From Chiloscyllium plagiosum (lineage: Eukaryota), in assembly GCF_004010195.1 (NCBI RefSeq), contig NC_057726.1, forward strand, positions 21,535,283 through 21,599,282: DNA of 64,000 bases. Direction: 5' to 3'. Made by a program: the position numbers and the translations under genes. Position 1 is the first letter of the stretch. Each line of letters begins with the position of its first letter. The notes beneath the pieces are model-generated. The model had not been told where the DNA came from, ran no database searches, and saw only the letters and a list, made by a program, of their open reading frames with translations. Positions 6,700 through 63,339 of the stretch are shown piece after piece.

Positions 6700-7660
6700 G
6701 CAGTGGCGAAGGGAATAGGTGAACTTCCCCCACCCCTCTAAGCATAATAAAGACAGGGTCCCCTTGTCCTCATTTTCCACCCCACTAGTCTATGCATCTA
6801 ACATATCATCCTCAAATATTTCTGCCAACTCCAACTAAACCCCATCATCAAGAAAATCTTTCCCTCCCCATCCCTGTCTGCTTTCCCCAAGGACCATTCC
6901 CTCCGACAGTCCTTGGTTCATGCTACACTTCTCCCGAACCCCCAGGTATCTTCCCCGCAACTGTAAAAGATGCAAAACATGCCGGCACACCACCTCCCTC
7001 ACCTCCATCCAGGGCCCCAAGTAGTCTTCCCAGGTGAAACAGATGTTCATCTGCCTCTCCTCCAACCTAGTTTACTGTATCCGGTGCTCTCAATGGGGTC
7101 TTCTCTCCATCAGGGAGACCAAATGTAAACTCAGGGCACGTTTCACCAAGCATCTCAGCCAGGCCCGCACGGGCCGACCTGACCTCCCAGTCACAGCTCA
7201 TTTTAATTCCCCATCCTACTCCCTTTCTGACATGACCATCCTCAGCCTCCTCCATTGCCATAGAGAATCAGACTGCAAGTTGGAGGGACAACACCTTATC
7301 TTTCAACTGAGCAGCCGACAGCACAGAGGACTTAACAGTGAGTTGTCCAATTTCAAATAACCTTCCCAGCCATTCCCTGACTCCCTTCCCAGCCCCGCCT
7401 CCTCGCTTCCAGCCCTCTGACCAATCCTTCCTTCCAACTATCACCCGGATTCATTCCTCCCACCAACTAACCAGGTCATATGCACCACCTGCATTAATCT
7501 ATCACTACCTTACCGACCCTTCCCCCCCCCCACTTTATTTGCAGCTCCTCCTATCCCACCTTTATTCCTGAAGAAGAGTTATATCCAAAATGTTGACTTC
7601 TCCACCTCCTCATGCTGCCTGGCTTGCTGTGTTCTTCCAGCGCCTTGTTTGTCTACTTTA
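6700..7660 (+). mobile_element. Penelope-like element 3' part: GIY-YIG endonuclease remnant plus pLTR with decayed hammerhead
   Basis: KDRVPLVLIFHPT linker. ORF 7034-7360 reads SSNLVYCIRCSQWGLLSIRETKCKLRARFTKHL...VTAHFNSP...KLEGQHLIFQL...GLN, a PLE GIY-YIG pattern. CTGAAGA at 7568 is followed by a mutated stem and GAAA. Confidence 0.9.
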
Positions 7661-7767
7661 ATATATGGCATCAAATAAATGACTTTTAAGCTACAGTTCT
7701 TCCATTTATACCACTGCCACTTGTCTATATAACAAAACCATCATCACAGTAAAAACTAAGTACAGTA

Positions 7768-7962
7768 AAACAAAGAACCGCTGTAGATAGAAGTTGCTGG
7801 AAAAACTCAGCAGGTCTGGCAGCATCTACAGAGAGTGAAACAGAGTTAATATTCCATGTCCAATGAACCTTCCTCAGAAAGGCTCTGAAAAATGAACTCT
7901 GCTTTCTCTCCAAGCATACTGCCAGACCTGCTAATTTTCGCCAGTAACTTTTGTTTGTGTTT
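7768..7962. mobile_element. Older hairpin-shaped PLE pLTR insertion
   Basis: Arms agttgctggaaaaactcagcaggtctggcagcat...cagagtt and aactctg...tactgccagacctgcta...ccagtaact are inverted copies. A decayed CTGAGGA hammerhead core lies on the minus strand near 7845-7878. Confidence 0.7.
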
Positions 7963-8194
7963 AAGATCTATGTGTATATTTCACAACAGCTCTGAACTTC
8001 TTTTCCACAAAGCTTTCTTTGCCATCTCTTGTTCATGGAGGTATGATCATATGACAAATGGGTCACATGACACTTGATACCATTTGGCAAATGCTGGGTC
8101 CCCTCCAATTGAGCACCTTAATGCTGGCAGCTGTTGGGCAGGAAGGTTAGAGTTTATATTGGGCAGCAAGGATGTTAGACATGATGTAACCTTA

Positions 8195-8545
8195 CAAGAA
8201 CGTAAGATATGGAAATAGGGGGAAACCTCATGGCACCTCAGGCTATTTCTATCATTGGACACGATCATGGCTATCCTCCTGCCTCTGATTCCCTGGCCCT
8301 CCTCAAATTCCTTGGTTTTCTGAGAGATCGAAAGTCAATCTTAAATATACTCAACAATTATGCATCCCAAACCATAGGAGGTCGAGAATTTCAATGATTC
8401 AAAATTAGTTGAATGAAGGCATTTATCTTGATCTCAGTGCAAAATGATCAACCTTTTATCCTTATGTTATAGATTACCCAGCCAAGGAAAACAGCCTCTC
8501 AGATTCCTACCATGTCAAGCCCATTCAGAATGTTGTAGGTTTCCT
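8195..8545 (-). mobile_element. CR1 LINE 3' end (old)
   Basis: Homologous to the 3' end of the CR1 at 53853 onward (agaacgtaagatatgg..., atcatggct..., ggaaacagcctctc). Confidence 0.7.
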
Positions 8546-9021
8546 GATCTTCAATTAGATATTGGTTTTGATCATAGATTTTTATCCCTCACAGATTAAA
8601 CCAAGTTCCCTTCCATATGGACAGCCCTTCCCTTAAGCACTGTATAATACCACAAACAACAAGGTTATATTGGAGGTTGCAGACATCCACAGTACCCACT
8701 TCAATGAACTGCTTTATGTTGTGAACAGAACAGGTACACATGTGCAGAAACAGTTCAAGGTGACTGTGGAATGGGGAACAGCTGTACTAAATTGGGAGCA
8801 AACAAATGTGGTAATCACCAAACAAGATTGGCAATGTTTTTCCCCCAGCTTTGGTTCGAAGAGATTCCCATTCAAATCAGGGAAGGGCTGGAAAACCCTG
8901 TCCATAATTCTGTCAGGTATGTAGTGATAAGCTTTACATTTGAGCTATCCTGACAGCATAAGAATTGCACAGACACCATTAGTTATACATGCTATCTCCT
9001 ACTAAGATAGTGTATAAGTAA

Positions 9022-10043
9022 TGTTATGAAGATGTGGGTGTACTGTACTTTTAAGACAGTTAAAAGCTAGCAGTGACAGCACCAAGTTTCTCAATAAGAC
9101 ACAATGTAACATATGCTCCGGCTACTGGGGTAGCTGGTTGCCTGGAAATTACAAAACAGATTCGAATTAGGCCAATCAGTTTAAATTACACCCCAAAAAA
9201 TACCAATTTCCAACCAAATTTGAATTGAGTATAGATTAGATTAGATTAGATTACTTACAGTGTGGAAACAGGCCCTTCAGCCCAATAAGTCCACACCGAC
9301 CCGCCGAAGCGTATACCACCCAGACCCATACCCCTACATTTACCCCTTCACCTAATACTACGGACAATTTGGCATGGTCAATTCACCTAACCTGCACATT
9401 TTTGGATTGTGGGAGGAAACCAGAGCACCTGGAGGAAACCCACGCAGACACAGGGAGAATGTGCAAACTCCACACAGTCAGTCGCCTGAGTTGGGAATTG
9501 AACCCGGGTCTCTGGCGCTGTGAGGCAGCAGTGCTAACCACTGTGCCACCGTGCCGCCCACAATATTGACAATCGTAAAAGCTAATGACAGAATCCGATG
9601 CTTTGGGGTTTAAGACTGGGGTAAATTGAATAGTTGGGCGGAGAACTGCCAAGCCAATGACATTTGCCCAGAAAATAGCTCTCTTAAAATATACCTTAAT
9701 CGATCAGTAACCTGTGAAGCAGACTTCCCAAGAAGAAGAAAAAGACAGGAATTCGGAAAAAAACTGAAAATGGCCTAGTTTTGAGATAAGAAGTGTTGTT
9801 TTGTAAATCTTAATTGGGAGTTTTATCAGACTAGTATTATAGAAGGCATAAAAGATAGGTTAGAAGAAGGACTTGTAAATAATTGTTAGTTAATTATTCT
9901 CTGTTACACTTTAAGAAATAAAGTTATTAATTTTAACTTTAACTCATTCTTAGGTTTTCAAATTTTCACAGATTACTGCACAGGATTAATCTTTTCTGTG
10001 TTGCTGGTTTTAAATTAAGTAGGAGAGTACCATTGTCATAACC
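9022..10043 (+). mobile_element. Solo LTR (LTR retrotransposon), interrupted by a SINE
   Basis: Starts TGTTATGA and ends TCATAAC(C), i.e. short inverted termini. AATAAA near 9917. Architecture resembles the LTRs at 19693 and 42055. No clear TSD. Confidence 0.6.
9232..9561 (-). mobile_element. HE1-type V-SINE, young full-length copy
   Basis: On the minus strand: tRNA head with A-box TGGCACAGTGG and B-box GGTTCAATTCC, central conserved domain, CR1-derived tail and (TCTAA)n end. Near-identical to 47625-47950. Confidence 0.92.
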
Positions 10044-10831
10044 CATGTCTTAACAATAATGGTAACTGTGCAATTCTTCCCTTTTGTCTCTTTCCTTATG
10101 ACATCTTCAATTAAGTAGCTGCCCAAAGTATAAATATTATCAGGTATAATAGCTTTAGCATGTTAACTGTGAATTAAAATCACAAACTTAAGCTTCTAAA
10201 TTTGTATTTTGGGGAAAATTAAATAGGATAATATATTAAGGTTCTAAACAGAGGGCCCACAAGTACAGATGGTCTGGCTCAGTACAAGTCCAAGATTAAT
10301 GCCTGGCTAATGTCAATGGGTAATGGAGCATAAAGGGAAAGGATTGTCTCATTGAAATTGGTTTCTGTGGACTCGGGCAATGACCAAAACGGAGAATGGT
10401 AGTGGGAACTAAACAAGATTTTGTAAAAGGGGTTACAAGAGGACTAAGATAACACTTTACAAGATAATATAGGAAAACATATATTGACTGTCTCTCCATC
10501 ACCACCAACCACCCACCCCATCTTCTTTGAATGGTCCACACCAACAGATATCTGGAGAAGGACCTTGTACACCCTACGGTTGTATCAATGTTGGAAGCAG
10601 ACGAGACAGAGTGTAAACAAATTCCTGTAGATAGGATAAGTGGAAGACCCCAGATAGAAAATCTTTGTGTATTGTATGAGAACAAAATGTAAGCAATGTA
10701 TGCACGTGTGAATGTGGGGGAAATAAAGGCTGATGATTTTCCGTGTGTATCAGAGATAGATCAGACAAAGATTGAACAATGTGGGACAGAGCAATGTAGA
10801 GCCAGACAGAATATCAGGCAGAATTCTGTTT

Positions 10832-12460
10832 GGAAAAAGTGAGGACTGCAGATGCTGTGGATCAGAGCTTAAAAATGTGTTGCTGGAAAAGCGCAGCAGG
10901 NNNNNNNNNNNNNNNNNNNNNNNNNNNNNNNNNNNNNNNNNNNNNNNNNNNNNNNNNNNNNNNNNNNNNNNNNNNNNNNNNNNNNNNNNNNNNNNNNNNN
11001 NNNNNNNNNNNNNNNNNNNNNNNNNNNNNNNNNNNNNNNNNNNNNNNNNNNNNNNNNNNNNNNNNNNNNNNNNNNNNNNNNNNNNNNNNNNNNNNNNNNN
11101 NNNNNNNNNNNNNNNNNNNNNNNNNNNNNNNNNNNNNNNNNNNNNNNNNNNNNNNNNNNNNNNNNNNNNNNNNNNNNNNNNNNNNNNNNNNNNNNNNNNN
11201 NNNNNNNNNNNNNNNNNNNNNNNNNNNNNNNNNNNNNNNNNNNNNNNNNNNNNNNNNNNNNNNNNNNNNNNNNNNNNNNNNNNNNNNNNNNNNNNNNNNN
11301 NNNNNNNNNNNNNNNNNNNNNNNNNNNNNNNNNNNNNNNNNNNNNNNNNNNNNNNNNNNNNNNNNNNNNNNNNNNNNNNNNNNNNNNNNNNNNNNNNNNN
11401 NNNNNNNNNNNNNNNNNNNNNNNNNNNNNNNNNNNNNNNNNNNNNNNNNNNNNNNNNNNNNNNNNNNNNNNNNNNNNNNNNNNNNNNNNNNNNNNNNNNN
11501 NNNNNNNNNNNNNNNNNNNNNNNNNNNNNNNNNNNNNNNNNNNNNNNNNNNNNNNNNNNNNNNNNNNNNNNNNNNNNNNNNNNNNNNNNNNNNNNNNNNN
11601 NNNNNNNNNNNNNNNNNNNNNNNNNNNNNNNNNNNNNNNNNNNNNNNNNNNNNNNNNNNNNNNNNNNNNNNNNNNNNNNNNNCTCCTGGGAGCAGATGCG
11701 GCGAAGGCGAAGGAATTGGGAATATGGGATGGCGTTTTTACAGGGGGCAGGGTGGGTCGCTGTGGGAGTCAGTCGGTTTATAGTATACGTCCGTGTTGAG
11801 TCGGTCGTCCGAGATAGAGATGGAGAGGTCTAGGAAGGGGAGGGAGGAGTCTGAAATGGTCCAGGTAAATTTGAGGTCGGGGTGGAAGGTGTTAGTAAAG
11901 TGGATGAACTGTTCAACCTCCTCGTGGGAGCACGAGGCAGCGCCGATACAGTCATCAGTGTAGCGGAGGAAAAGGTGGAGGGTGGTGCCAGTGCAGCTGC
12001 GGAAGATGGACTGTTCCACATATCCTACGAAGAGGCAGGCAAAGCTAGGGCCCATGCAGATGCCGATGGCTACTCCTTTGGTTTGGAGGAAGTGGGAGGA
12101 CTGGAAGGAGAAGTTGTTAAGAGTGAGGACCAGTTCAGTCAGTCGAAGGAGAGTGTCAGTGGAAGGGTACTGGTTGGTTCGGCGGGAAAGGAATAAGTGG
12201 AGGGCTTTGAGGTCTTCATGATGGGGGATGGAGATGTATCGGGACTGGATGTCCATGGTGAAGATAAGGCGTTGGGGGCCGGGGAAGCAAAAATCATGGA
12301 GGAGGTGGAAGGCGTGGGTGGTGTCCCGAACGTAGGTGGGGAGTTCTTGGACTAAGGGGGACAGGACCGTGACAAGATATGCAGAAATGAGTTCGGTGGG
12401 GCAGGAGCAGGCTGAGACAATGGGTCGGCCGGGGCAGTCAGGTTTGTGGATTTTGGGCAG
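10832..12460 (-). mobile_element. 5'-truncated Penelope-like element (RT remnant, gap, pLTR end) with TSD
   Basis: ORF 11738-12256 reads MDIQSRYISIPH...NNFSF...QTKGVAIGICMGPSFACLFVG...FLRYTDD...LPFLDL...VYYKPTDSH, a PLE RT with YIDD changed to YTDD. It continues after a small deletion as HPAPCKNAIPYSQFLRLRRICSQE. The pLTR terminus ggaaaaagtgaggactgcagatgctg lies at 10832. Direct repeat gaattctgtttgg at 10821-10833 and 12461-12473. Confidence 0.92.
10901..11682. other. Assembly gap (782 N)
   Basis: Run of N inside the Penelope element. Confidence 1.
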
Positions 12461-12610
12461 GAATTCTGTTTGGCCTGTCTAACACAGGCTTTATCTCTGA
12501 AGTTATTTGAATGAACATGTACTCTGTACAGGAGATTTGCAACAATATTATCCATTTCATTTTAATTTGTACTTTTGTACCTCTGTTGTCATCATTTTTG
12601 TGGCCTGAGC

Positions 12611-12859
12611 AAGAATTAAAATTTGCTAGGTAATAGAAATGAAAGAATGAGTGTGACAGGTAACCTTGACACCATTCCTTGTACCATATTGAATGACATA
12701 GCGTCGGATGATGTGGAGTCTGTGTGGGTGGAATTGAGGAACCACAAAGGCAAAAAAAACATAATTGGAGTTGTGTATAGAAGAATTAAAATTTGCTAGG
12801 TAATAGAAATGAAAGCATGAGTGTGACAGGTAACCTTGACACCATTCCTTGTACCATAT
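12611..12859 (+). repeat. 79-bp direct duplication enclosing a 91-bp CR1 endonuclease-coding fragment
   Basis: 12611-12689 matches 12781-12859 with one mismatch. The insert 12690-12780 translates NDIASDDVESVWVELRNHKGKKNIIGVVYR, from the APE endonuclease region of CR1 ORF2. Confidence 0.9.
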
Positions 12860-13238: not shown

Positions 13239-14371
13239 TGTTACAGAAAAATTGACATTTTTCCATGAGCATAGATAAAATCTGGAAATGTGGAAGCCAA
13301 GCTTAAACCGAACTGGACTCTGCAATTTGCAAATTGCCAAGCTAGAACAGACATTATTCATGTATCCAGGCTTTAGACAAACAACTGCCTGTTGAAACCA
13401 GACAGGCCTGGAACTGCCTGGCCAGGTGCTAACTGCCGCATTGTTTCAGAACAGACTGTTATTTACACCTTTGTGAGTAATGTGACACAGATTTGGTGGC
13501 ACCCAGCTCAGGGAGAGGCCAGAGGAACAGTGTGACAAGGACAGCCCTTGCCAGTTGAAGATTCAAAACCATGTTCTGTGACAGGAGAAATCGACGTAAT
13601 ATTGATTCTCCTGCTCCTTGGATGCTGCCTGACGTACTGTGCTTTTCCAGCACCACACTCTCGACCATGTTCTGTGACATCCAAATATAGGAAGTAGCCA
13701 AGTCACTGGATCTTCATGCCCCACCTAGATTTGGTCACAGAATCTTTGAGAAGGGCACAAAGAGGAGTATAAAAGGTCCCCAGCTCACATTTCTTTAAAT
13801 GCATCTCCAGACAGCACCTTCGACTGGCAGCTGAGCTGCACAGAATCTCAGCTCCTTGGAGCTCATGATGAGCATCATCAGACTGACCAGAACCAGAGAG
13901 GTGTCCTCAGTGTGACAATACAAAGGCCAGAAACAGCCTTGGACAAGAGTGCAAGCCCAAGTTGATGACTACGGATCCTGAAACTTCAACCAATCCTCAA
14001 AGACCGAGGAACAGCCTGCCTCAACCTTACTGAATGGGTATTACTAATTCTTTTGGACAAACTGTTCAACTACAGCAGAAGGGAGTGTAGATAGGGTATT
14101 GTAAATGCTTAGAAGTACATGTCAGAAGTAGATAACTAGGGCAGATTTGTGACTGTTTGGTTGGAGATTTAAGACTGATTACCGAAGAGTAATGTGAGGA
14201 GATAATAGAGAGTTCAATTAATGTAGAAAGTAATATGTAATAAATAAAGAAATACCTACCTGTCACTTTACAACCAACTGAAAGATAACTTCCACAGATT
14301 TTCATTGCACAATTGCCCTTATATACTCATTTTGTTCTTCCTTCACTATACAAGGGCTTACTCCAGTAATT
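13239..14371 (+). mobile_element. Possible solo LTR
   Basis: Begins TGTTAC. TATAAAA at about 13768, AATAAA at about 14242, decayed GTAA end. Boundaries uncertain. Confidence 0.35.
13584..13663 (+). mobile_element. 80-bp PLE pLTR insertion with short fold-back and 16-bp TSD
   Basis: TSD accatgttctgtgaca at 13568-13583 and 13664-13679. The insert matches the pLTR gattctcctgctccttggatgctgcctgac... and is preceded by an inverted ggagaaatcgacg. Confidence 0.88.
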
Positions 14372-20168: not shown

Positions 20169-20303
20169 GAGGAGAAAGTGAGGTCTGCAGATGCTGGAGA
20201 TCAGAGCTGAAAATGTGTTGCTGGAAAAGCGCAGCAGGTCAGGCAGCATCCAGGGAACAGGAGAATTGACGTTTCGGGCATAAGCCCTTCTTCAGGGCAT
20301 TTT
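20169..20303 (-). mobile_element. PLE pLTR insertion with 16-bp TSD
   Basis: TSD cagagttatggttatg at 20153-20168 and 20304-20319. Same terminus as the element at 10832. Confidence 0.9.
20268..20295 (-). ncRNA. Minimal hammerhead ribozyme motif (PLE type), intact core
   Basis: Minus strand CUGAAGA-A-GGGC-UUAU-GCCC-GAAA-CG-UC, giving a GUC cleavage triplet and a palindromic ACGU stem III. The 5' strand of stem I appears lost at the truncation point. Confidence 0.7.
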
Positions 20304-21710: not shown

Positions 21711-21849
21711 CTCCATTTATTCTAATTTTTCTGTTTTCATTATGTTTTCCGAAGATGCCAGTTTGAACACTAATGCTTGCATTATTCCATTCCATTTCCT
21801 CAACTGAGAATCACCATCCTGCTGGTTAACAGCAACTGTGGCCATTACA

Positions 21850-25749: not shown

Positions 25750-26235
25750 TGGGATGTCAAGCCGGCTCAATGGTTATCACTGCTTCCTCACAGTGCCAGT
25801 GACCAAGGTTCAAATCAAGTCTTGTTCAGTTTACGTATTCTCCCAGCGTCAAAGTGGGTTTCCATCGGATGCTCAGGTCTCCTCCCACAGTTTAAGGATG
25901 TGGTTACTTGGATTGGCTATGCTAAATTGCCTGTAGTGTCCAGGGATGTGCAGGCTAAGCAGATTAGCCATGGGAAATATGGTATTACAGGGATAGGATT
26001 GGTCTAGGTTTGGGTTGGGATGCTCTTCAAAGGGTCAAGATTAGAGTGGTGCTGGAAAAGTACAGCAGGTCAGGCAGCATCCGAGGAGCATGAAAATCAA
26101 CATTTCGGGCAAAAGCCCTTCATTAGGAATGGAGGCAGGGAGCCTCCAGGGTGGAGAGATAAAATGCTCTTCAAAGGGTTGATGCAGATTCAATGGGCCA
26201 ATGCCCTCTTTCTGCACTGTAGGTATTCTATGTTT
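25750..26235 (+). mobile_element. HE1-type SINE (old), split by a PLE insertion
   Basis: ggctcaatggttatcactgc...ggttcaaatc...gattggctatgctaaattgcc...aatgggccaatgccctctttctgcactgtag. Confidence 0.8.
26036..26163 (-). mobile_element. PLE pLTR insertion with 16-bp TSD and decayed hammerhead
   Basis: TSD atgctcttcaaagggt at 26020-26035 and 26164-26179. Minus strand reads CTAATGA-A-GGGC-TTTT-GCCC-GAAA-TG-TT. Confidence 0.88.
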
Positions 26236-33227: not shown

Positions 33228-33272
33228 TTAGATGGAGGTGTTAGTGTTGGACTGGGGTGTGATTTTTAACTT
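33228..33272. mobile_element. Collapsed 45-bp remnant of the PLE family seen at 61353-62052
   Basis: gatggaggtgttagtgttggactggggtgt matches the reverse complement of that element's tail and is joined to gatttttaactt, its arm end. Flanked by aatttaaaa at 33219-33227 and 33273-33281. Confidence 0.6.
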
Positions 33273-36152: not shown

Positions 36153-36351
36153 AGGAGAAAGTGAGGACTGCAGGAGTCGAGAGTGTGGTGCTGGGAAAGC
36201 ACAACAGGTCAGGTAGCATCCGAGGAGCAGGAGAATCAACGTTTTGGGTATAAGCCCTTCCTGATGACGGGCTTCTGCCTGAAACATTGATTCTCCTGCT
36301 CCTCGGATGGTGCTTGAACTGCTGGGCTTTTCCAATACCACACTCGCGACC
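36153..36351. mobile_element. Hairpin (inverted pLTR) PLE insertion with 13-bp TSD and hammerhead motif
   Basis: TSD tagaaactccatt at 36140-36152 and 36352-36364, with inverted arms. Plus-strand CTGATGA-C-GGGC-TTCT-GCCT-GAAA-CA-TT at 36261-36288 (CpG-decayed). Confidence 0.88.
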
Positions 36352-37248
36352 TAGAAACTCCATTCCCTTACTCCACAATTTATTAATTCCGCTGTTGCTT
36401 TCTTCCAGCCAGGCATTTCTCAAATTCACCATCCAAATCCAAATCAATCAAATCAATCAAACATTTTTGAAATCAAGTTCCTTTTGCCTTCTACATTTAG
36501 CCCCTGACCTTTAACATGACCACCTTCCTTTAAATGCTTGTTCTAGCCTTTCACGTTGCTGCAATGTTAAATCAATGTGCAAGTTCACAGCACAAGTCAG
36601 AACATTTGCAAGCTAGCAAAATCGATAACTTGTTTCAGTTTGGTTGAACACAAAACTTAGACCGTTGTTTTTGTGTGATCCGAGAATATTACAAGAGAGG
36701 GTGAGAAGTGCACAAATATGAACTTAGTAGTTTGAAAAATAAGCTGTGTTTGTACTCAGAGCTTTGTCTTTATGAAATTTCTACATCTTTATTTTAACAG
36801 ATACATCCATGCAATCTGTCTAACTACTCTGATGAAATAGAGGCATACTCAATTTCATTTTAATGCATTCATTAGTGATACTACACAGCTTGATCTCAAG
36901 CTACATCAGATAGAGAATAACATATATAAATACATTTTTAAATAAGTGTTGTGCTTATATTACTTGGAATGGGTATGTCTTTCATTATCAGTATCGAACT
37001 TTCAAGTTGTAATTCACTGTGAGGTCAAGTCAAGGTCCTTCCAAAATAAAAACAGAAAGATCAGGCAGCATCTGTCTGGAGAGAGAAAGCAGTGTTAATG
37101 TTTCAAGGTCCCAAAATTTAGCTAGAAACAAGGTCAATTTTCAGTAAGAGGTGGATGGCACAGAATGAGGTTGCATTTAATTATGCACATCAGCCCAGGT
37201 GGGGCAGCCAGTGTACATGCACAGGAGTACAGACATGCAGTGGGGCAT

Positions 37249-37409
37249 TTTTAGAGTGGTACTGGAAAAGCACAGCAGGTCAGGCAGCATCCAAAGAGCA
37301 GGAAAATCAACATTTTGGGCAGGAACCTTTCATCGGGAATTTCTGAAGAAGGGCACCAGCCTGAAACATCGATTCTGATCTCCAGCATCTGCAGTCCTCA
37401 CTTTCGCCT
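37249..37409. mobile_element. Hairpin PLE insertion with 14-bp TSD and hammerhead motif
   Basis: TSD atgcagtggg(g/a)cat at 37235-37248 and 37410-37423. Plus-strand CTGAAGA-A-GGGC-ACCA-GCCT-GAAA-CA-TC at 37343-37370. Confidence 0.85.
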
Positions 37410-38250: not shown

Positions 38251-40480
38251 TGTCATGTATATTAATGTGTTCTAGTCTGCTACAGCAAGACACACACACT
38301 GTTGGCAGACATCTTAAACGTTACTTCAATAAAGTCCTCATTTTGAACACACCGCTGTGTTATACACTTGAAACATGGTTTCAGAAGTGGTCAATGTCCA
38401 GAGCTGAGATATAAAGCACGGCTGCTCAGCTGTAAGCTGCCACTGAGAAAGAAAATGAGCAAATGAAAAATCACAGAGAAATCATTGCTTAAGAGAGAAT
38501 GGCTGCAGCTTCTCCCCTGTCCCCAAATGGGATAGGAGGCAAAACTGGGAATTCTTCTTTGAACAATGGCAAAATTATGTAACAGTTATGAATTTGTTGA
38601 GCAAACCAGAACAAGTACACACAGCTGCACTTTTATCACTGTTGGGAACAGATAGTTTCAAAATTTATTCCATCCTAAATCTCTGAAGAGCAGAAAGAAA
38701 TACATGCCAGAAATGTTAAAAGCTTTGAAGGCATGCTTTGAGCCCCATGTGAACCATGTGTGTGAATGGTGCATATTCAATACTAAGGAACAAAGTGTGA
38801 AAAAAAATCCAATGATCAAGATATAACATCATTAACGCAACCTGCAGAAACCTGTGAATTTGCACAATTAAAGGATGAGCTAATTAGAGACAGCACTATA
38901 TTCAAATAAAGGATCCAAGGTGAAAATAGAGCAATGGACTTGTCCAAAATTGCGGAGGTTGTGAATCAACAGAGAGAATATTCATGGTAGAACAAAACCA
39001 GATCTTACATTATACTGGCAGATACTCCTGGGACATGGGGCAGAACAACCACAGAGGATCGGATAAAAATGCTGCAGTAGACAGCATGCAAAAGAAGAGA
39101 AGGCATGTCCAGCCTGGGGAAAGCAGTGTTCTCACTGCAAGAACCTGAATTAATTTGCACACAGGTATATGGCAAATGGCCATGGGAGAGATAATGGCTT
39201 AGGATTATTGGAAATCACTATACACCATACAACAGTTTGCTCCAGTCAAATTGATAGACAGGACGTGGTTGTAACTGTTGGAACAAGGACTGCAAAAGGA
39301 GATTTTACACACTAATGCTTCATGTCTCGCATGAACTTAAGGACCTTGGCAAAGTAACTTAAGGCAACAATCCAGAATTGAAGCCCTCAGGAGTACTTCT
39401 TGTACTGAGAGGACAGATTAGTCTGTGAGCCCACTTCAATAACATGAATAAGGATCTAGAATTCCAGATTATAGACTTTAAGGAAACATCACTCATCTCA
39501 GCTACAGTAAATCAATAGCTTGGACTGGTAATCCTCAATGTGCCAAAAGCGATGCAGTATATTACAGCATATTAAACCTTTGGCCATGGAGCACATCTAG
39601 AGGAGCACAAAAATGTGTGGATGCAATTCGGGTGTCTTCCAGGAGAAAGTCATCCTGAAGCTGATAAGAATACCAGATCAATTCAGTACCAACTCTCGCT
39701 ATCCTTATGGCCGGTCGGAAATGCAGATTGAAAAGCTGGGAAAAGGAGGAAGTAATCAAGAAGGTGACAACTCTTACAAAATGGATTAGCAGCATGGTAG
39801 CATGGAAACAACCTAAAAAGATGAATGTGCATTGACCCAAAGAACATACATGAAGTCTTGAAGAAATCTCACTCCCCCATGCCAACCATTCATAGAATTC
39901 TGCTATAATTTGCAAAGGCAAAAATATTTACCACCTTTGTCACACAGAACCTGGTAAGTGAAGCTAGATTAGAGCAGCAGCTTTCTGACCATATTCTGGA
40001 TGCATTTTTGGAGATACAGATGGTTGCACATGCTGTTTGGCATTTGCAGTGCTTCAGAAGACAAGACAGTTAATAATCTTCCTGGAGTGGAAGATGCAGC
40101 CAATAAGCTGCTAGTCTATGGATGCAAAGGCACAACAGAAGAAACGATTGCTGATCATGATCAAAATCTAGTGAGAGCACTCAGAGTTCTCCAGATCAAC
40201 CTGAAGTTGAAGATAAAAAATAACAAAAACTCATGAAAATTCTGAAGAACAGTCACATTGGACTTGAAATGTAGTGTCTGCTGTGCTCTCCAACAGATGC
40301 AACCAGACCTGCTGAGTTTGTTTTCCTGTTTTTATTTCTGATTTCCAGCATCACAGCATTTGGCTTTTTTTTAACAGAAGGCCTTACCTGGATGATGAAA
40401 AAGTCACAGCTCTAGTAGCCATGCAGCAGGCAACAGATACAGAAGCAGTGCAGCAATTTGTTGGATTCATCACGTTTCAT
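38251..40480 (+). mobile_element. Decayed Gypsy LTR retrotransposon (5' LTR, PBS, gag, RT)
   Basis: LTR TG...CA at 38251-38375 with AATAAA. PBS tggtttcagaagtgg at 38376 (close to the tRNA-Leu complement TGGTGTCAGAAGTGG). Gag remnants LKALKACFEP, ETCEFAQLKDELIRD and knuckle CPAWGKQCSHCKNLN. RT remnants VIKKVT..WISSMV, FWRYRWLHMLFGICSASE, LPGVEDAANKLLVYG and PDDEKV..AVQQFVGF. Many stops and frameshifts. Confidence 0.85.
40238..40372 (+). mobile_element. Older PLE pLTR fragment with hammerhead-like motif inside the Gypsy RT
   Basis: CTGAAGA (40242)-AC-AGTC-acattg-GACT-T-GAAA-TG-TA, then cagatgcaaccagacctgctgagttt. Related fragments at 40490-40550 and 40900-41055. Confidence 0.65.
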
Positions 40481-42054
40481 AATTGGTGCACAGACACTGC
40501 CAGACCTGCTGAGCTTTTACAGCAATTTCTACTTTTGTTTCTGATTTAAGGACTATGTGTGCAGTGCATTCAGAGACTGATGGAAATACTGAACTGCCAA
40601 GGCAGGAGATCAGTAGCATATATAGTTTGCACATGGATAACAGAAAATGTATATGCTAATGCAAGGGTTTTTTTTTTCTTATTTTTTTCATATAAAAAGA
40701 AAATAGTGTCAAAATATTTGCTTAGTCTGCTAATCACATGGCTTCTACCATGAGGCACTTATCCTGTAAGGCAGATATCTTATGCTTTACTCAAATGAAG
40801 TCATTGATTGAACACACAGTTTTGTCGCAAACTCAAAACTCCTCTGTCCTCATTCCACTCACCCTTTGCTCAAAGCATTTTACATATCTAACTTATCCCA
40901 GTTAAAACAAAAGGTCATAGACCTGAAACATTAACTCTGGTTCTTTTGCACACAGATGCGGCTTAACCCACTGAGATCCCTCCTACCATCCTCACCACCA
41001 TCACTTCTGGCTTTATTTCAGAATCCTAGCATTAGTAGTATTATGCTCTTTGATTCTAGTTCGATCTACTTTGACTCAACAAGATGCCTCAGAAGAGCAC
41101 CTAACAACACAACTCATTGCACACATTAGCCAGCCTGTATGATTTTGAAGGCACTTCAATTTCTCCCCAAACTCGATTTAACTTTTCAAAACCTCACCCC
41201 ATTAAGCTTTTTCACTGAACACCCCTCCTCTTTGGACAGTTGATGAACATTGATGTCGGAATCTATAGCCAATTTTCCTTTCTTGCCACTGAGAGAAATG
41301 TTCTTTGGAAATAACAAGTTAGTGAAAGAGTTTGAGGAGAAGGAATTTAAAATGACACAAAAGAAACTTTTAACAATGATTTTTTTTAAGAAGAAATTCT
41401 TGAAAAGAATTAATTAAGAGATTTTAATGAATAAACATACCAAATAAATCGTGGATGCCTTGAAATCCTGCGGCATAATCTAGATTAAAATCTTTTATTC
41501 ACATAAACTTCACATTTATAACAGAAACTAATTGTAACTCCTATTGTGACATTTCAATTGCAACCTCCCACCATCAGTTCTGTCAGTAAAGTAAAAGAAC
41601 TATATGTTGCAAGCAACTGTGTGCTTACTCTATACAGTTTTCCTATTTTAGAAAGTATAATATAAACTTTTAAAAGGGTAGAAATTTTAAATGTGAACTG
41701 GGCTTCATCTGTACTCTAGTTGAATTTAATCCTATTATCTAAATTGACATCACTTAAAAGCCACACAAATTCTAACTTCCAATGTAAATGCCACAATTCA
41801 TCTTTTGGTATGAGCAACAAATCTTTTGATAATTCTGCAGAAATACCATTTTAACAAAACAAAATAACTTGTACTTATATAGTGCCAATCTTATCCCAAA
41901 GCACTGAAAAGCTATTATTTACTTGTGAAATGTTATCACTCGTTACAGTGGGCAGACAATAGTTGATTTGTGCAGACATTAGATGTATATTCCCATGCTG
42001 CTTTCGTGCTCTTAGTTGAGGAACTCCAGGAAAATTCCCTTATGTTCTTTCATG

Positions 42055-43119: not shown

Positions 43120-43840
43120 TAGAATCATAGAGCATGGAATCAGATCTCTTGGTCCAACTTGTCCACACTGACCATGTTCTCAAACCAACCTAGTCCTACC
43201 TGCCTGCACTTGGCCCATATCCCTCCAAATCTTTCCTATTTATGTACATATCCAAATGTCTTTTAAACATTGTAACTGTACTTGCATCCACCACTTTCTC
43301 TGGCAGTTCATTCCATACATGAATAAAAAAGGTTGTCCCTCATGTCCTATATAAATCTTTCTCCTCTCACCTTAAAAACATGCCCTCTAGTTTTGAACTC
43401 TCCCAGCCGAGGGAAAAGATCCTTGTCATTCACCTTGTCTGTGGAGAAAGTGAGGACTGCAGATGCTGGAGATCAGAGCTGAAAAATGTGTTGCTGGAAA
43501 AGCACAGCAGGTCAGGCAGCATCCAAGGAGCAGGAGAATTGGCGTTTCGGGCATAAGTTTTCCTGAAGAAGGGCTTATGCATGAAACGTCGATTCTCCTG
43601 CACCTTGGATGCTGCCTGACCTGCTGTGCTTTTCCAGCAACACATTTTTCAGCCCCCCATTCACCTTGTCTGTGTCCCTCATAATTTTATAAACATTCAT
43701 AAAGTCTCCCCTCAACCTTCAGTGAAAAAAGTCTTAGGCTTTCCAGACTACTTTTATATCTGAAACCCTCCACTCCCAGCAACATCCAAGTAAACCTTTT
43801 CTGAACCCTCTCCAGCTTAATAATATTCTTTCAATAATAG
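43120..43840 (-). mobile_element. CR1 LINE 3' fragment interrupted by a PLE hairpin
   Basis: Reverse-complement CR1 3' ORF end and tail (agaatcatagag..., ccatatccctccaa..., ctctagttttgaactc). Confidence 0.85.
43444..43657. mobile_element. Young hairpin PLE insertion with 17-bp TSD and hammerhead motif
   Basis: TSD cattcaccttgtctgtg at 43427-43443 and 43658-43674. Near-perfect inverted arms plus an unpaired terminal tail. Plus-strand CTGAAGA-A-GGGC-TTAT-GCAT-GAAA-CG-TC at 43563-43590. Confidence 0.92.
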
Positions 43841-46269: not shown

Positions 46270-46578
46270 GGATGGCACAGTGGCTCAGTGCTTAGAACTG
46301 CTGCCTCACAGTGCCAAGAACCCATGTTCAATTCCAGCCTTGGGTGACTGCCTGTGCGGAGTTTGCACATTCTGCCCATGTCTGCATGGGTTTCCTGCAG
46401 GTTTCCTCCCAGAGTCCAAAGATGTGCTGACCAGGTGAATTGGCCATACTAAATTGCCCATAGTGTTAAGTGCATTAGTCAGAGGAAAATAAGTCTGGGT
46501 AGGTTACTCTTTGGAGGGTCAGTGTGGACTTATTGGGTCGTAGGGCCCTGTTTTCACACTGTAGGGAATCTAATCTAA
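46270..46578 (+). mobile_element. HE1-type V-SINE
   Basis: tggcacagtggctcagtg...gttcaattcc...gagtttgcacattct...cacactgtagggaatctaatcta. Confidence 0.85.
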
Positions 46579-47624
46579 GCTATTTCATCATTACACATTT
46601 GTTACTAATAACACAATGAAACGCAGCAGCAGTTACTCATCAAACACTACGTCTCAGGCTCAGCTTCACCACCTTATGAACAGTCTCAAATGTCAACAGT
46701 CCCTTCGTGCTAGCCTGCCCCATCAACATCGCTATCATAATTCTCCAAGACCCTCACACAATCCACTTAGATCTTCATCAGCCCACTTTCCACACCCAGC
46801 CCCAGGCATGCCAAGTGCTGCTTACAGTCAATAGTATCACTTCCCACATTAACCCTTTCCTTCCCATTCTCTTTTGTCTCTCCCCGCCCTTGTAAGTTGC
46901 TCCCCTTGACTATCGCATTCCTTTCTGCATCCCAGCATTCTGACTCAAATCCCTCCAATCTCCAGTCTCTCTTTCACAGTACTGGCTCCTGATATCACGC
47001 CCCCACTTTGATCTTTAGAGGATGGATCCCCAGGACTGACGATGGCATACACCCTTGAACAACTTCACTGAAAATCCCCAAACAATACCAGACCAGACCC
47101 CTGATTATTCGACTCCTGACTATTTTCCCACGACTCCCCCAACTGACTGCACAGGACTCACAAGGCTGATAGTGACCTACTCCTGGATTGTATTGGTACA
47201 CACCTGACCAGCTAACCGATTGTGTCCAAGCCTCTGAAGTGATAGTGGACGCTGCCTTTGACTTACTGTGCCAGTATCCCAACCCTGAAAGGTGTCTTCC
47301 CAGACCTAACTGAGGACTACTCCCCTTGAGACATGGCTGTTTTCCTGCACCAAATGCAGTGTCATTGGTATGGGCACACTTGTCACATGGTACAGGAGTG
47401 TGATTGGCATCACATGGTGCCATACAGAAACTTGTCCACCCTCTTAACTAATGACTGTTGACAAATGTGACAAATTTTGATTCTGCAATAAACAGCAAGG
47501 TAAGGCTGAAACACTGTTTCTTTAAAAGATCTAGCTGAGGAGCCAAAGCACAAAAAGACAAGATATTGCATTATAATGATTATCCTTTGGCTTTAAAGCA
47601 AAAACTCAAAATAAATAGTGCCGC

Positions 47625-47950
47625 TGTGGGCGGCACGGTGGCACAGTGGTTAGCACTGCTGCCTCACAGCGCCTGAGACCCGGGTTCAATTCCCACCTCA
47701 GGCGACTGACTGTGTGGAGTTTGCACATTCTCCCTGTGTCTGCATAGGTTTCCTCCAGGTGCTCCGGTTTCCTCCCACAGTCCAAAGATGTGCAGGTCAG
47801 GTGAATTGGCCATGCAAAATTGCCCGTAGTGTTAGGTAAGGGGTAAATGTAGGGGTATGGGTGGGTTGCGCTTCGGCGGGTCGGTGTGGACTTGTTGGGC
47901 CGAAGGGCCTGTTTCCACACTGTAATGTAATCCAATCTATTTTAATCTAA
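47625..47950 (+). mobile_element. HE1-type V-SINE, young full-length copy
   Basis: A-box tggcacagtgg, B-box ggttcaattcc, and tail gggccgaagggcctgtttccacactgtaa shared with CR1 3' ends. Confidence 0.92.
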
Positions 47951-53852: not shown

Positions 53853-55283
53853 ATTAGACCATAAGACATAGGAGTGGAAGCAAGGTCATTCGGTCCATCA
53901 AGTCCACTCTGCCATTTAATCATGGCTGATGGGCATTTCAATTCCACTTACCCGCACTCTCCCCGTAGCCCTTAATTCCTTGCGAGATCAACAATTTATC
54001 AATCTCTGCCTTGAAGACACCCAATGTCCCGGCCTCCACTGCAATTCGTGTCAATGAATTCCACAGGCCCACCACTCTCTGGCTGAAGAAATGTCTCCTC
54101 ATTTCCATTCTAAATTGATCCCCTCTAATTTTAAGGCTGTGCCCACGGGTCCTAGTCTCCCCGCCTAACGGAAACAACTTCCCAGCTTCCACCCTTTTTA
54201 AGCCATGCATTACCTTGTCAGTTTCTATTAGATCTCCCCTCAGCCTTCTAAACTCTAATGAATACAATCCCAGGACCCTCAGCCATTCATCATATGTTAG
54301 GCCTACCATTCCAGGGATCATCAATGTGAATCTCTGCTGGACACGCGCCAGTATGTCCTTCCTGAGGTGTGGGGCCCAAACTTGGACACAGTATTCTAAA
54401 TGAGGCCCAACTAGAGCTTTATAAAGTCTCAGAAGCACGTTGCTGCTTTTATATTCCAACCTTCTTGAGATAAATGACAACATTACATTTGCTTTCTTAA
54501 TCATGGACTCAACCTGCAAATCAACCTTTAGAGAATCCTGGACTAGCATTCCCAGACCCCTTTGTGCTTTAGCTTTATGAATTCTCTCACTGTTTAAAAA
54601 ATAGTGAATGCCTGTATTCTCTTTTCCAAAGTGCACGACCTCGCACTTGCTCACATTGAATTTCATCAGCCATTTATTGGACCAGTCTCCTAAATTGTCT
54701 AAATCTTTCTGCAGCCTCCCCACCTCCTCAGAACTACCTGCCTGTCCACCTAACTTTATATCATCGGCGAAATTCACCCAGAATGTCCCCAAATCATCCA
54801 GATCATTAATATATAAAGTGAACAGCTGCGGCCCCAACACTGAACCTGGCGGGAACCCACTTGTCACCAGCTGCCATTATGAAAAAGAACCTTTTATCCC
54901 AACTCTCTGCCTTCTATCAGGCAGCCAATTCCCAATCCATGCCAGTAATTCACCTCGAACACCATGGGCCCTCACCTTACTCAGCAGCCTCCTGTGAGGC
55001 ACCTTATCAAAAGCCATTTGGAAAACTAGATAGACAACATCCACTGGGTTTCCCTGATCTAACCTATTTGTTACCTCTTCAAATAATTCTGACACGTTTA
55101 ACAGGCACAACCGCCCCTTACTAAATCCATGCTGACCTGTTCTGATCCGACCCTGCACTTCCAAGAATTTACAAAACTCATCCTTAATGGTGGATTCTAA
55201 AATTTTACCAACAACTGAGGTTAGGCTAAATGGCCTATAATTTTCCAACTTTTGTCTGGATCCTTTTTTGAACAAAGGGGTCA
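53853..55283 (-). mobile_element. 5'-truncated CR1 LINE with nearly intact RT region
   Basis: ORFs 54877-55314 and 53938-54867 are in the same frame, separated by one TAA. Motifs TPLFKKG..ENYRPFSLTSVVGKILE, QHGF, AFDKVPH, SGFPPGSVLGPQLF, FADDIKL and PHLEYCVQ. 3' tail near 53853. Confidence 0.95.
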
Positions 55284-55540
55284 TGAACAAGAATTCATGT
55301 CTGAATGCTTTCAAACAACTGTAGGGAAGAAATTGAATCTCATTGTTAAGTCTGCTGATATCTTTAAGGTTAGAAGAGACAGGTGATAACTATTAATTGT
55401 TTGAGTATATACACATCTGGGTTACAGCTCTCATGGTGCAGTGATAGCGCTCCTATCTCTGGGACAGAAGGCCCATGTTCAAGTCCCACCTGCTCTGGTG
55501 GTGTGTAATAGCAGACCTGGGCAGATTTATTTAAAATAAC

Positions 55541-56729: not shown

Positions 56730-56916
56730 AAACATAGAAACAAATTACTGCAGAGGCTGGAATCTGTACTGAAAACAACAAAGGCTAGAGATCACAGCAG
56801 GTCAGGCAGCATCCATGGAGAGAGAGCAAGCTAATATTTCAAGTCTGGATGACTCTTCATCAAAGAGGAAGTGAAATATGAAAGGGGCAGCAATTAAATA
56901 TGTTTACATTTGTTGG
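56730..56916 (-). mobile_element. PLE pLTR insertion (another family) with 12-bp TSD
   Basis: TSD tttcaatgttca at 56718-56729 and 56917-56928. Minus strand TTGATGA-A-GAGTC-ATCCA-GACTT-GAAA-TA-TT is a decayed hammerhead. Confidence 0.8.
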
Positions 56917-59090: not shown

Positions 59091-59169
59091 TGAGGTATAT
59101 AGTTCTTGTTGGTTTATCAAGAGTGCCAGTTCATAAGGTGCCAGTTGAAACAAATTTTACTGTACTTTT

Positions 59170-59985: not shown

Positions 59986-61411
59986 TCAATCAAATTCTGA
60001 TACAAGATCATATGATACTAACATTATTAACTATTTTTTCAGGTAACTACTGCAACATATTGCATACATCAATGCACGTTACCTCCTTCACATCCAATAC
60101 TAGTAATGGCTTGCATTCCGAGTATTATTGGAATGCCCCAATTTGTGAAAGGAATTAAGTTGATTAATCATAGCTTTGTCACAGGTAGTGCAGGAAACAG
60201 TTTTTTTTTTAATTTATGAAGTGTAAACCCTGATTTCAATTCCATGGTAACTGTGAGCGAGCTGGGGTAGTGAGTTTTTCACTTGGGGTGTTCACTAAAA
60301 TGTGAAAAATCCTGAAGTGAGGACAGTGCAATTGTCAATGTCTTTTCAACTCACCCAAAAAGGAAAAACAGGCAGACCTGGCATTTTGATTTGACTTGTC
60401 TGGTGCATCTCAAACTAAAAATCCACTACGACCAACATGTTCATTTCCAAGTATTAGTGTTTTTTTTCACTGTTCATTCTGAGCAGACCCATCATTGTAA
60501 TTTTTACTTCTGGCCTTGCAGTCTACTTTTCATTATTGAAAGCTTGTCATATCCATTATAGACCTTTATCTCCAGAAGAGAACTGTCGAACTAACAGTAA
60601 CGGAATTAATACCAGACACTTTGGCCATCAGACAGCTTGAGTTGATATTTGCAATCCTTCTCCAGTAACAGGGTTGAATGATTATTCACTTGTTAGAAGC
60701 GACAGGAAGAAATGTGAACTAGATAAGTCAAGCAGAAGTGCAGCAATTTGCATTAAATTTGATTTCCCATATGAAATTGTAAGACAATGTCACATTCTGG
60801 AAGCAGAAACTCTGAGTCAAATAAACCCCAAATGGGATTTATGTGCCCAGTACCATATTATTTGCTAATAATTTCCCAAAGACTGTAACAAATTTGTGAT
60901 GAACTATGCAATATCTTCAGTTACTGCCGTGAAAAGAAAGACAATGGCATCATTATTAGAGGTAAAAGGAATCAACTGGAACTAATCCTCCACCCGTTCT
61001 GCTTTCAAGCATGTTGTTGATTTCCTATCTTGCAAAATACATTTTAGCCGTAACTGAAGTACATATCCATGAAGTGTATGGGTTTCCAGGGAAACAACAT
61101 TCTAACTGTAGGACTTCATAAATACTTCAACCGATCTTTCAATGTTAAGTTAATAGTCCACCAAAATCCTTGGACACCAGATATCAAATTACATCTGCTA
61201 ATGAAATCTATCCCAGCAACATTCTTTTAAATAACATGTCCATTCATGTGTTTCACCAATGTTAAGTATGCTATGTCCAAAGGCAGGTCCCTGGCTTATT
61301 ATCCTTACATTTAATTCCAGTCTTTTAATTTGCCAATAACTTCAATTTTCAAAGTTAAAAATCACACAACACCAGGTTATAGTCCAACAGGTTTAATTGG
61401 AAGAACACTAG

Positions 61412-61509
61412 ATGTGGGCGGCATGGTGGCACAGTGGTTAGCACTGCTCGGTGTGGACTTGTTGGGCCGAAGGGCCTGTTTCCACACTGTAAAGTAATCT
61501 AATCTAAAA
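61412..61509 (+). mobile_element. Internally deleted HE1 SINE inserted in the left arm
   Basis: Head gtgggcggcatggtggcacagtggttagcactgct is fused directly to tail cggtgtggacttgttgggccgaagggcc...aatctaatcta. Confidence 0.88.
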
Positions 61510-61930
61510 TTTCGGAGTGACGCTCCTTCATCAGGTGATAGTGGAGGGCTCGATCGTAACACAGAATTTATAGCAAAAATTTACAGTGTGATGTAACTGA
61601 AATTATACATTGAAAAATTGATTGTCTGTTAAGCCTTTCATCTGTTTTCATACAGTGATAGTTTCACTTCTTTCATGTGTAAATCACAAAACCCTTTTTT
61701 TAAAGTTGCATTCTCGGGTTAGCTGTTAACAATGGTGACAGCTATTCATTGTTAACAGCTATCACCATTGTTAACAGCTAACCCAAGAATGCAACTTTAA
61801 AAAAAACTATCACTGTATTCTAACAGATGAAAGGCTTAACAGACAATCAATTTTTCAATGTATAATTTCACTTACATCACACTGTAAATTTTTGCTATAA
61901 ATTCTATGATACGATCGAGCTCTCCACTAT

Positions 61931-61965
61931 CACCTGATGAAGGAGCGTCACTCCGAAAGCTAGTG
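61931..61965 (+). ncRNA. Minimal type I hammerhead ribozyme motif (PLE type), complete
   Basis: CAC-CUGAUGA-A-GGAG-CGUCA-CUCC-GAAA-GC-UA-GUG. Stem I is CAC/GUG, stem II is GGAG/CUCC, stem III is the palindrome AGCU. Predicted cleavage after CUA (61962). Confidence 0.78.
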
Positions 61966-63339
61966 CTTCCAAATAAACCTGTTGGACTATAACCTGGTGT
62001 TGTGTGATTTTTAACTTTGTACACCCCAGTCCAACACCGGCATCTCCAAATCATAACTTCAATTTTCAAGCCATCTGTCATTTGTGTCTCTTCCTTTCTC
62101 TTATACTTATCCTTGAAATTCACACTCCAGAACATCTCTGATGAGTTTGTTTCCTCTTAGGATGTGTCCTATCCAGACTCCATGCTGGCTTTTAATTAAT
62201 TCATTACATTCAAACAGTTCTTTTTTGTCCATTCACTGTCCACAGTACCTGGTCATTTGTTACTTGTCCTTTCTCCTCCAAACCAACATTTCAAAATTAT
62301 TTAGCAAGTTAGTTTCTTTTTCCATAGGTCCAAATGTTAGGGTCCTAGCTGATAGTAATATTGAACAAGTCAGATCATAGAATAAGACTTGAATTGATAG
62401 ATCATAAGTCAGAACTTTGCTGTTTGGTACCATGGTAGTCAGTTATTGAGCATAAGAGACTGCCAATGTACTTTTAACAGGAGAATATTAAAACTTATTA
62501 CATACTAAATAAAATGATGCAAGTACGATTTGAACTGATCATGCTGCAAAACTCAGAAATAAATATTCAACACCTTTACCCTCAACATTCTTATTGACAC
62601 TTCTACCTCAGTGAAGGGGGCAGTCCTATCTTTAATTTACTGAGTTGGCACGACTGTAACTGGTTTCATTTCAGCAAGGTACTGAATTCACTTACTGCTA
62701 TGTTCTTTAGTTAATGTCTCTGAGTTCAACAAACAAGCTGCTAACTCAGCTCACTTACTCCTTAACATGTGTTCCTTAAGCTCATGTGTTCAAAGCTCTA
62801 TAGGCTTCTGACACCTACAAAACATTTTGATTTTTGAGTTTTTTTTACCACAATGGAATTATGCTGCTTCTCCTTGGAGACTGCTAAATGTACAACACAT
62901 CTGCTTTGACAGACCTGTTCTCTCTCCTTCTTGGTTGGTCTGAATTTGTGATACTAAATTCCTGACATGAGGCAATAGCAGGTTCCTTTTTTTGCCTCTT
63001 CTACTTGTTTTTCTTAAGCAATTAACTATTCACCTCAAGGGTTTTAAAGACCTCATGCAAATACCTGTGAATAAATCTCCAGGCACTCCATTCCAATTCA
63101 TAAGACAAATCTAAAATGAAACTTAAAAAGTCCTTCCCCTTCTTCATGCATAGAACGTAGAAATAAAAGTCAAATTCAAAGCTATACATTATTTCTGCCA
63201 TTTGATCAAGATCTCAAACAATAATAAAGGCATTATGATTCACCATCATGTAAGTCCCATATCCATTTGAAAAAAAAAAGTCCTAATTCATAGAAACCTT
63301 AAACATTCATCATTTTCCTCCAATATCCAGCATAAAAAC

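Follow-up and report, generated by a model that had tools for sequence, protein, structure and literature searches.

Hammerhead-bearing ends of Penelope-like elements inserted in two CDH13 introns of Chiloscyllium plagiosum and their probable origin, in part, as run-off cDNAs

A 64,000-nt stretch of the genome of the shark Chiloscyllium plagiosum (NC_057726.1, positions 21,535,283-21,599,282, assembly GCF_004010195.1; hereafter the window, in which one gap of 782 N spans 10901-11682) contains numerous short insertions with hammerhead ribozyme motifs in two introns of the cadherin gene CDH13. These insertions are pieces of the pseudo-long terminal repeats (pLTRs) of several families of Penelope-like elements (PLEs). 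In the interpretation we consider probable, they represent separate insertions of hammerhead-bearing PLE ends at the density of the genomic background, and roughly one in two of the young ones probably arose as a run-off cDNA of the capped, uncleaved front of the PLE RNA.

All ten insertions named in a preliminary description of the window are bounded by exact target-site duplications (TSDs) of 9-17 bp. No TSD was found in a search around three further relics (~6700, ~7790 and 40245). The individual insertions and relics, assigned to families A, B and C, are as follows.

6659-7655, plus strand: old PLE 3' fragment with a relic of thumb and endonuclease coding sequence, 3' untranslated region (UTR) and decayed hammerhead (core 7568-7574); matches PLE proteins in tblastn (E 1e-26); no TSD found; right end approximate.
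7790-7940, unstranded: old family-C fold-back stub, degenerate hammerhead (core ~7877, minus strand); ends approximate; no TSD found.
10832-12460, minus strand: 5'-truncated family-A PLE with reverse transcriptase (RT) at 12460-11683 (Pfam RVT_1, 1.1e-8), the 782-N gap, short end and 34-nt tail; TSD 13 bp (10821/12461).
13584-13663, plus strand: family-A stub with a small fold-back spanning the predicted cut site; CUGA core and tail both missing; TSD 16 bp.
20169-20303, minus strand: family-A stub with intact core (20295), stem II, ACGU-C and 34-nt tail; second arm of a few bases; TSD 16 bp.
26036-26163, minus strand: family-A variant, single arm plus ~35 nt of 3' UTR; tail absent, core mutated to CUAAUGA; TSD 16 bp.
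33228-33272, unstranded: micro-insert of family B in which the inverted tail abuts the short end; no hammerhead; TSD 9 bp.
36153-36351, unstranded: family-A variant hairpin; the left arm alone has the tail, the right arm a partly decayed hammerhead (core 36261); TSD 13 bp.
37245-37409, unstranded: family-A variant hairpin (the insertion named at 37249); right arm with core 37343, internal deletion and tail; TSD 10 bp.
40242-40940, plus strand: three old family-C relics, namely core 40242, arm ~40493 and core-less stem II 40912; no TSD found for the first two.
43444-43657, unstranded: family-A hairpin, tail on left arm only; core 43563, broken stem II; TSD 17 bp.
56730-56916, minus strand: old family-C single arm; core 56863 with C3 mutated, stem II GAGUC/GACUU; TSD 12 bp.
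61353-62052, unstranded: long hairpin of family B; its right arm carries TATAAA, the tail and an undamaged hammerhead (core 61934), and its left arm is interrupted by a fragment of a short interspersed element (SINE) (~61412-61507); TSD 17 bp.

The preliminary description had most pLTRs carrying one and the same motif. It is recognisable in seven of the ten inserts, but core and stem II are unbroken in just two (20169 and the right arm of 61353), and it is wholly absent from 13584 and 33228. Exact matches to core, stem II and GAAA number seven in the window versus 0.35 +/- 0.57 in 20 resampled controls. The five stem II variants listed earlier (GGGC/GCCC, GGAG/CUCC, GAGUC/GACUU, AGUC/GACU and AGGUC/GACCU) are all present; the last of these, at 40912, has lost the CUGA core, and its pattern by itself is at chance level (32/100 shuffles). 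An Rfam search of the window returned no hammerhead family at E<=5, and the fold-backs gave only chance-like matches to miRNA hairpins.

For comparison with the genome, 100 stretches at round coordinates on large contigs were taken as an unselected set of 965 kb. A strict descriptor gave 55 matches in the first 583 kb versus 0-1 in five controls, and 78 matches in the whole set, which extrapolates to about 290,000 motifs per genome; one 33-mer alone has 18,445 exact genomic copies. Stem II differs in sequence by family around a conserved core, but as it belonged to the descriptor its pairing is no independent evidence. Stem I, outside the descriptor, forms at least two pairs at a frequency of 0.75-1.00 when its strands come from the same family and 0.00-0.25 when they are exchanged between families A, B and D, whereas A and C share their first pairs (n = 4 for family D and n = 3 for family C). 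In the helix III palindrome the inner pair is Watson-Crick in 58 of 78 cases, and 17 more look like CpG decay. Helices I-III covary between families, each of which carries a minimal type I hammerhead motif.

In the hairpin inserts the two arms are predicted to pair with one another and thereby hide the motif. The calculated fold of the 43444 hairpin, which has 4,599 candidate matches genome-wide in a first-look search, reaches -142.6 kcal/mol (z -19), arm pairing with arm and masking the ribozyme. Cleavage would be predicted to need a dimer plus protein. Two variants of the motif were observed on the side. Subfamily A2 (loci L087, L092, L100 and L119) pairs perfectly over 4 bp or more of stem I, at a place where a U-U mismatch interrupts the commoner family A, and family D (L093:6949(+), L113:9734(+), L135 and L139:7224(+)), which is absent from the window, has a stem II of 6-7 bp and its own covarying stem I.

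The element at 10832-12460 had been put forward as the physical link between the commonest short repeat and a PLE RT. Within the window this link crosses the 782-N gap, which hides the hammerhead, and other genomic copies were therefore needed. These do show it: in 18 of 20 fetched loci, out of 39 other RT matches listed, the family-A end follows the RT on the same strand, typically about 600-800 nt on; seven of these loci are free of N, and the two misses end in gaps. The RT itself, besides its RVT_1 match, has 15 homologues at 34-71% identity, four of which are annotated with GIY-YIG (PF01541). A CxxC linker and an endonuclease region lie between RT and family-A end, with a C-x4-C-x2-C motif in L078 and L079. 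Pfam alone gave no endonuclease match in L078 or at window positions 7025-7357. Judged from sequence, including the tblastn comparison with PLE proteins, the order of a PLE-type RT followed by a GIY-YIG endonuclease is that of an endonuclease-positive (EN+) PLE. The Neptune clade is described by a Zn-finger (CxxC) linker between RT and endonuclease, and family A looks Neptune-like by its own CxxC linker. In three loci (L032, L038 and L042) PLE endonuclease sequence is found upstream of family B. The claim of several families is upheld.

The complete element can be assembled from loci that retain the 5' part of the open reading frame (ORF). The tail continues into the ORF in 13 of 30 such loci; L214 and L222 begin at the A of the ATTC before the core, and L223 and L224 are tandem. 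The autonomous element thus begins with AUUC, hammerhead, short end and 34-nt tail, followed by the ORF, and the AUUC-to-tail unit recurs 3' of RT and endonuclease. Tandem copies and a like unit at both ends are the hallmark of a pLTR, and an inverted copy, a tail of 30-40 bp on one end and a variable TSD are those of an EN+ PLE; all were observed. Read by eye, an ATG in the stem II loop of L214 and L222-L224 opens a hydrophobic upstream frame of about 26 codons, and the main ORF seems to begin about 40 nt past the tail. The loci L061-L080, picked for PLE RT, contain N gaps in 16 of 20 cases, many within the element, so that long PLE copies are under-assembled here. Family B has AATAAA about 10 nt past the predicted cut site (window 61966-61972 and other copies), a possible poly(A) signal in the pLTR.

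The points at which copies start were mapped on 163 arms of the unselected set. Of these 158 were usable, 24 ended next to the anchor and were set aside, and 134 were analysed. Relative to the core, 46 of 71 arms at risk have their 5' end at -8 to -4, or 0.13 per nt, compared to 0.042 per nt at -3 to +1, a background of 0.005-0.007 and none of 17 at -40 to -21. The bases that precede the ATTCC-hammerhead genome-wide provide a second line of evidence. The templated C is found in 13,412 cases, G in 3,017, A in 1,449 and T in 567; G exceeds T 5.3-fold versus a background ratio of 0.69 (452:654). Some members of the A class are palindromic hairpin centres, recognised from paired opposite-strand matches. 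None of the first 30 G-class loci has a normal 3' UTR upstream (inspected by eye). Among the first 30 loci of the C class the copy reaches 35 nt or more upstream in 21 and stops within 11 nt in nine, from which it follows that roughly half of the intact copies are stubs. Family B retains TATAAA at about -38 in 21 of 31 templates, across differing spacers, and its 5' ends fall at -12 to 0 in 20 of 47 arms. The start coincides with an initiator-like TCATTCC. An extra G also marks full-length L1 insertions and is there taken as a mark of the cap (PMC11702581).

A scheme consistent with these start points, and with the hairpins described below, can be outlined. RNA polymerase II would start upstream of the CUGA core, by about 4 nt in family A and by about 8 nt in family B, there 30 nt behind the TATA box; this position we infer from the 5' ends. 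The PLE protein would nick both strands of the target and start cDNA synthesis at two internal positions of the RNA that are separated by the length of one tail. Started in the 5' copy, or in the transcript of a solo end that carries the promoter, the cDNA would run off at the cap after 95-130 nt with an added G; started in the 3' copy, it would become an ordinary 5'-truncated copy. Where both target ends are extended, one per site, the cDNAs may join by microhomology into a head-to-head hairpin with the tail on one arm. The ribozyme would have been mostly uncut in the RNAs that got copied.

Several observations weigh against this scheme. The 24 of 158 arms set aside beside the anchor belong mostly to old families without a template. 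Among 38 single arms that end at -13 to +1, a TSD at the junction was recovered in nine (control 1), and about seven are pyrimidine-rich upstream, indicating that some breaks are false and templates missing. In the unselected set the base before the start is G in only seven cases and A in four, and the genome-wide numbers were taken instead. A script scored 14 of 19 hairpins as having an untemplated G, but by eye the G in eight of these 14 could equally be the adjoining base of the opposite arm or of a captured segment; in single arms the G falls within the TSD in four of 11. The G is strictly untemplated in few of the inspected loci. A cap-derived C end that anneals by microhomology would be expected to leave a G that the TSD or the opposite arm can also supply, yet the case is weaker for it. 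The family-B peak is broad and the TATAAA templates were chosen for that motif, while family A has no canonical TATA. Its stem I is also weak, with two pairs followed by U-U and a mean of 1.75 pairs. Raw RNA reads from the informative run X8 aligned only to repeats, on both strands, with no pile-up at a start or end, and no reads of run X9 aligned to the stretch; the RNA reads neither favour nor disfavour a start site.

If all stubs were ordinary 5' truncations from the 3' pLTR, the RT would stall or switch at the hammerhead or at short palindromes, and the G would reflect a choice by microhomology. Dispersed minimal hammerheads were read as truncated PLEs by Cervera and de la Pena (PMC4209133); microhomology is seen at many junctions, and the break rate climbs through the core from 0.013 to 0.04 per nt ahead of the peak. 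However, the RT reaches the stems from the 3' side, the peak lies 5' of them and is followed by the empty interval at -40 to -21, full-length copies begin at that very base, and the excess of G over T contrasts with the background. We consider this explanation highly unlikely. Still less credence can be given to a retrozyme-like origin, where hammerhead cleavage would set a unit RNA that circularises and reinserts. Ends at the cut site, +26 to +29, were seen in 5 of 130 arms (0.0096 per nt), which is at most about a twofold enrichment over background, and cut-site-defined 5' ends were rejected as a class. The named window inserts include no head-to-tail hammerhead tandem, that is, none of the head-to-tail units with one hammerhead each by which non-LTR retrozymes are recognised, albeit same-strand neighbours within 400 bp do occur (nine among 176 arms) and vertebrate non-LTR retrozymes are derived from PLE pLTRs according to bioRxiv 10.64898/2026.07.22.740005.

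A more serious alternative, though we regard it too as unlikely, is that the single-arm stubs are self-propagating, SINE-like elements with an internal promoter in the hammerhead region, served by PLE protein in trans. An internal promoter with initiator (Inr) and downstream promoter element (DPE) is reported for the pLTR of D. virilis Penelope (PMC2377424), and rotifer pLTRs act in trans (PMC3846280). A re-copied stub would be indistinguishable from a run-off product; family-A tails running into an ORF amount to 0/61 in the unselected set, so that full-length sources are rare, and in the same set CTTG is found in 4 of 8 G-start arms versus 0 of 10 long arms. This difference was not retained in a larger, pattern-selected set, where G-start and long copies show one haplotype spectrum (TCTG in 16/27 versus 14/23, TTTG in 5/27 versus 4/23). 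Moreover, the upstream TATA box of family B is kept by templates and lost in stubs, and hairpins are never copied as units. That haplotypes are mostly common to stubs and long copies argues, though not decisively, against SINE-like self-propagation. A search for tRNA genes in the window found none, a weak test for decayed heads.

The hairpins bear on the two-site priming of the favoured scheme. All 42 junctions are distinct, and one arm, but not the other, bears the tail in 38 of 42 hairpins from pooled, overlapping sets and in 23 of 24 of the unselected subset. Many different centres occur among 30 near relatives of the 43444 hairpin, which also have their own flanks, save five copies in a duplicated region; these five (L007, L010, L022, L024 and L025) share flanks and hence were multiplied as part of the larger duplication and not inserted separately. 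MITEs (miniature inverted-repeat transposable elements) and SINEs are short, non-coding, TSD-flanked and present in high copy number, and the shark hairpins resemble MITEs superficially. The "SINE/MITE-like" label of the preliminary description fails for the hairpins: distinct junctions, asymmetric tails and variable TSDs speak against amplification as units, and the fixed unit, symmetric terminal inverted repeats and fixed TSD of a MITE are not found. For single arms the label is unproven. Compared to both classes as commonly defined, the shark inserts have asymmetric ends, a 9-17 bp TSD, unique junctions, no tRNA head and ends that would be set by RT start sites.

Within one hairpin the arms differ by a median of 2 mismatches per 56 nt versus 10 between hairpins, and their haplotypes are identical in 26 of 42 cases versus 11%. 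Such likeness implies that both arms come from one RNA or one source locus. It would suit self-priming, in which one cDNA or antisense template folds back and copies itself, as would the perfectly palindromic junctions that occur; the model was proposed by Arkhipova et al. 2013 (PMC3846280). In 7 of 20 G-start hairpins, on the other hand, the G-start arm has no tail while the tailed arm has no core. Each arm then contains sequence that the other lacks, which one cDNA folding back could yield only with later deletions; two priming events can yield it directly. Arm similarity is equally expected when one source locus provides both templates, and we consider self-priming distinctly unlikely. Two-site priming also fits 20169, whose second arm has just a few bases, and the 33228 micro-insert, an inverted tail plus short end. 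By analogy, the two-site, two-strand scheme of the anole PLE would suit the seven hairpins better than self-priming.

The chances of a more far-reaching reading appear to us evenly balanced. In it the genome would hold on the order of 10^5 fossil strong-stop PLE cDNAs, primed at two internal positions of an RNA that was capped, uncut and opened with a hammerhead of 32 nt; the hairpins would be products of twin priming, and the ribozyme would act as a decapping or dimer-sensing switch and not define the copied unit. If so, twin priming would account for two features of PLEs, the inverted pLTR and the tail on one side. The inverted repeats, the one-end tail and the role of the hammerhead are stated open questions for PLEs, and the shark junctions give countable predictions: a start at -4, an extra G, one tail per hairpin and little use of the cut site. 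For annotators, the inserts are to be treated as PLE by-products and not as MITEs or miRNA hairpins.

That PLEs carry minimal hammerheads was stated correctly in the preliminary description, and the general phenomenon is known: published accounts cover minimal hammerheads in pLTRs and their dispersal in large numbers, pairs on opposite strands, and also inverted copies and tails (PMC4209133; bioRxiv 10.1101/2021.04.23.441226; PMC3846280). The minimal hammerheads in the relevant passages of PMC4209133 share with those of the shark a CUGAnGA core, an extra base before stem II, a G-C pair at the base of stem II and a palindromic or absent helix III. They also form many consensus families per genome, mostly as single dispersed copies, with some opposite-strand pairs 100-700 bp apart. 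The scale differs, with about 4,000 copies in coelacanth and about 9,000 in Xenopus versus the 33-mer count and the extrapolated total in the shark, although the descriptors are not the same; ribozyme-motif counts in cartilaginous fish may exceed those reported for other vertebrates by one to two orders. These passages assign the copies to truncation, map no 5' start and mention no shark.

The anatomy of EN+ PLEs, as given in Craig et al. (bioRxiv 10.1101/2021.04.23.441226) and Arkhipova et al. 2013 (PMC3846280), likewise includes head-to-head arms, a tail of 30-40 bp on one arm, variable TSDs and TATA- or Inr-like pLTR motifs. Unlike those elements, most shark inserts are 45-700 bp without ORF, and their junctions favour two primings over the proposed self-priming. 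The general PLE anatomy given in PMC8969392 agrees. Poseidon_Ac, an anole PLE characterised in vitro (Frangieh et al. 2024, PMC11167929), initiates reverse transcription at two internal positions and has both strands extended; cleavage there is dispensable and protein-assisted. As in the shark, the hammerhead is at the element start, and, as proposed for the shark, the two RT start sites bound the tail, about 80-120 nt downstream. Conversely, family A looks Neptune-like, its ORF appears to begin about 40 nt after the tail and not in the hammerhead, and the shark evidence is genomic, not biochemical. The non-LTR retrozymes, as described in bioRxiv 10.64898/2026.07.22.740005, are non-coding, carry type I hammerheads from PLE pLTRs and are found in a chondrichthyan, all in common with the shark inserts, but they form head-to-tail tandems with a hammerhead per unit, whereas the shark inserts are monomers or inverted pairs with TSDs. 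No paper on PLE stubs of sharks, on a G derived from the cap in PLEs or on twin priming by PLEs came up in the literature search, which did not extend to Dfam, Repbase, subscription papers or supplements; the supplements of PMC4209133 and the bioRxiv papers may list shark families.

The host gene is represented in the window by a single feature.

25176-25027, minus strand: CDH13 (cadherin-13, T-cadherin) exon, 150 bp, AG/GT bounded; sole CDH13 exon detected in the window.

Its best PDB match is T-cadherin (3e-13), and it is 100% identical to the annotated cadherin-13 protein P0001. In a tblastn comparison of cadherin-13 with the window this exon alone was matched; its limits rest on homology and AG/GT, as no splice joint of the CDH13 exon is among the joints listed. 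No RNA data set was listed as covering the exon region. The flanking CDH13 exons lie about 84 kb past one end of the window and about 261 kb past the other, according to a stricter first-look search which short exons could escape. With one exon inside the window, the inserts sit in two CDH13 introns and not, as first described, in one. The earlier figure of roughly one insertion per 6 kb is borne out in the window, but it equals the genome background: with the same probes, nine insertions were counted versus 10.7 expected from 164 insertions in 965,512 bases (P(>=obs) = 0.74). The picture of a colonised cadherin intron was therefore abandoned, enrichment of stubs in CDH13 being rejected on these numbers, and there is no sign of a CDH13-specific role for the insertions.

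Three further repeats were observed in the window. A common SINE-like repeat, about 330 bp long and carrying a short tandem tail, is present at 9232-9562, 47625-47949, 46274-46585, 1894-2197, 25764-25939 and 61412-61507, the last fragment being the one that interrupts the left hammerhead of the 61353 hairpin. It has 144 blast matches in the unselected 965 kb, and it resembles the shark HE1 SINE. At 53938-55389 (minus strand) two adjacent RT-bearing frames of a long interspersed element (LINE) with RVT_1 matches were found, presumably CR1-like by their motifs. Finally, a 79-bp direct duplication with 98.7% identity (12611-12689 and 12781-12859) surrounds about 90 bp of LINE-like sequence and may be either a long TSD or an assembly artefact.

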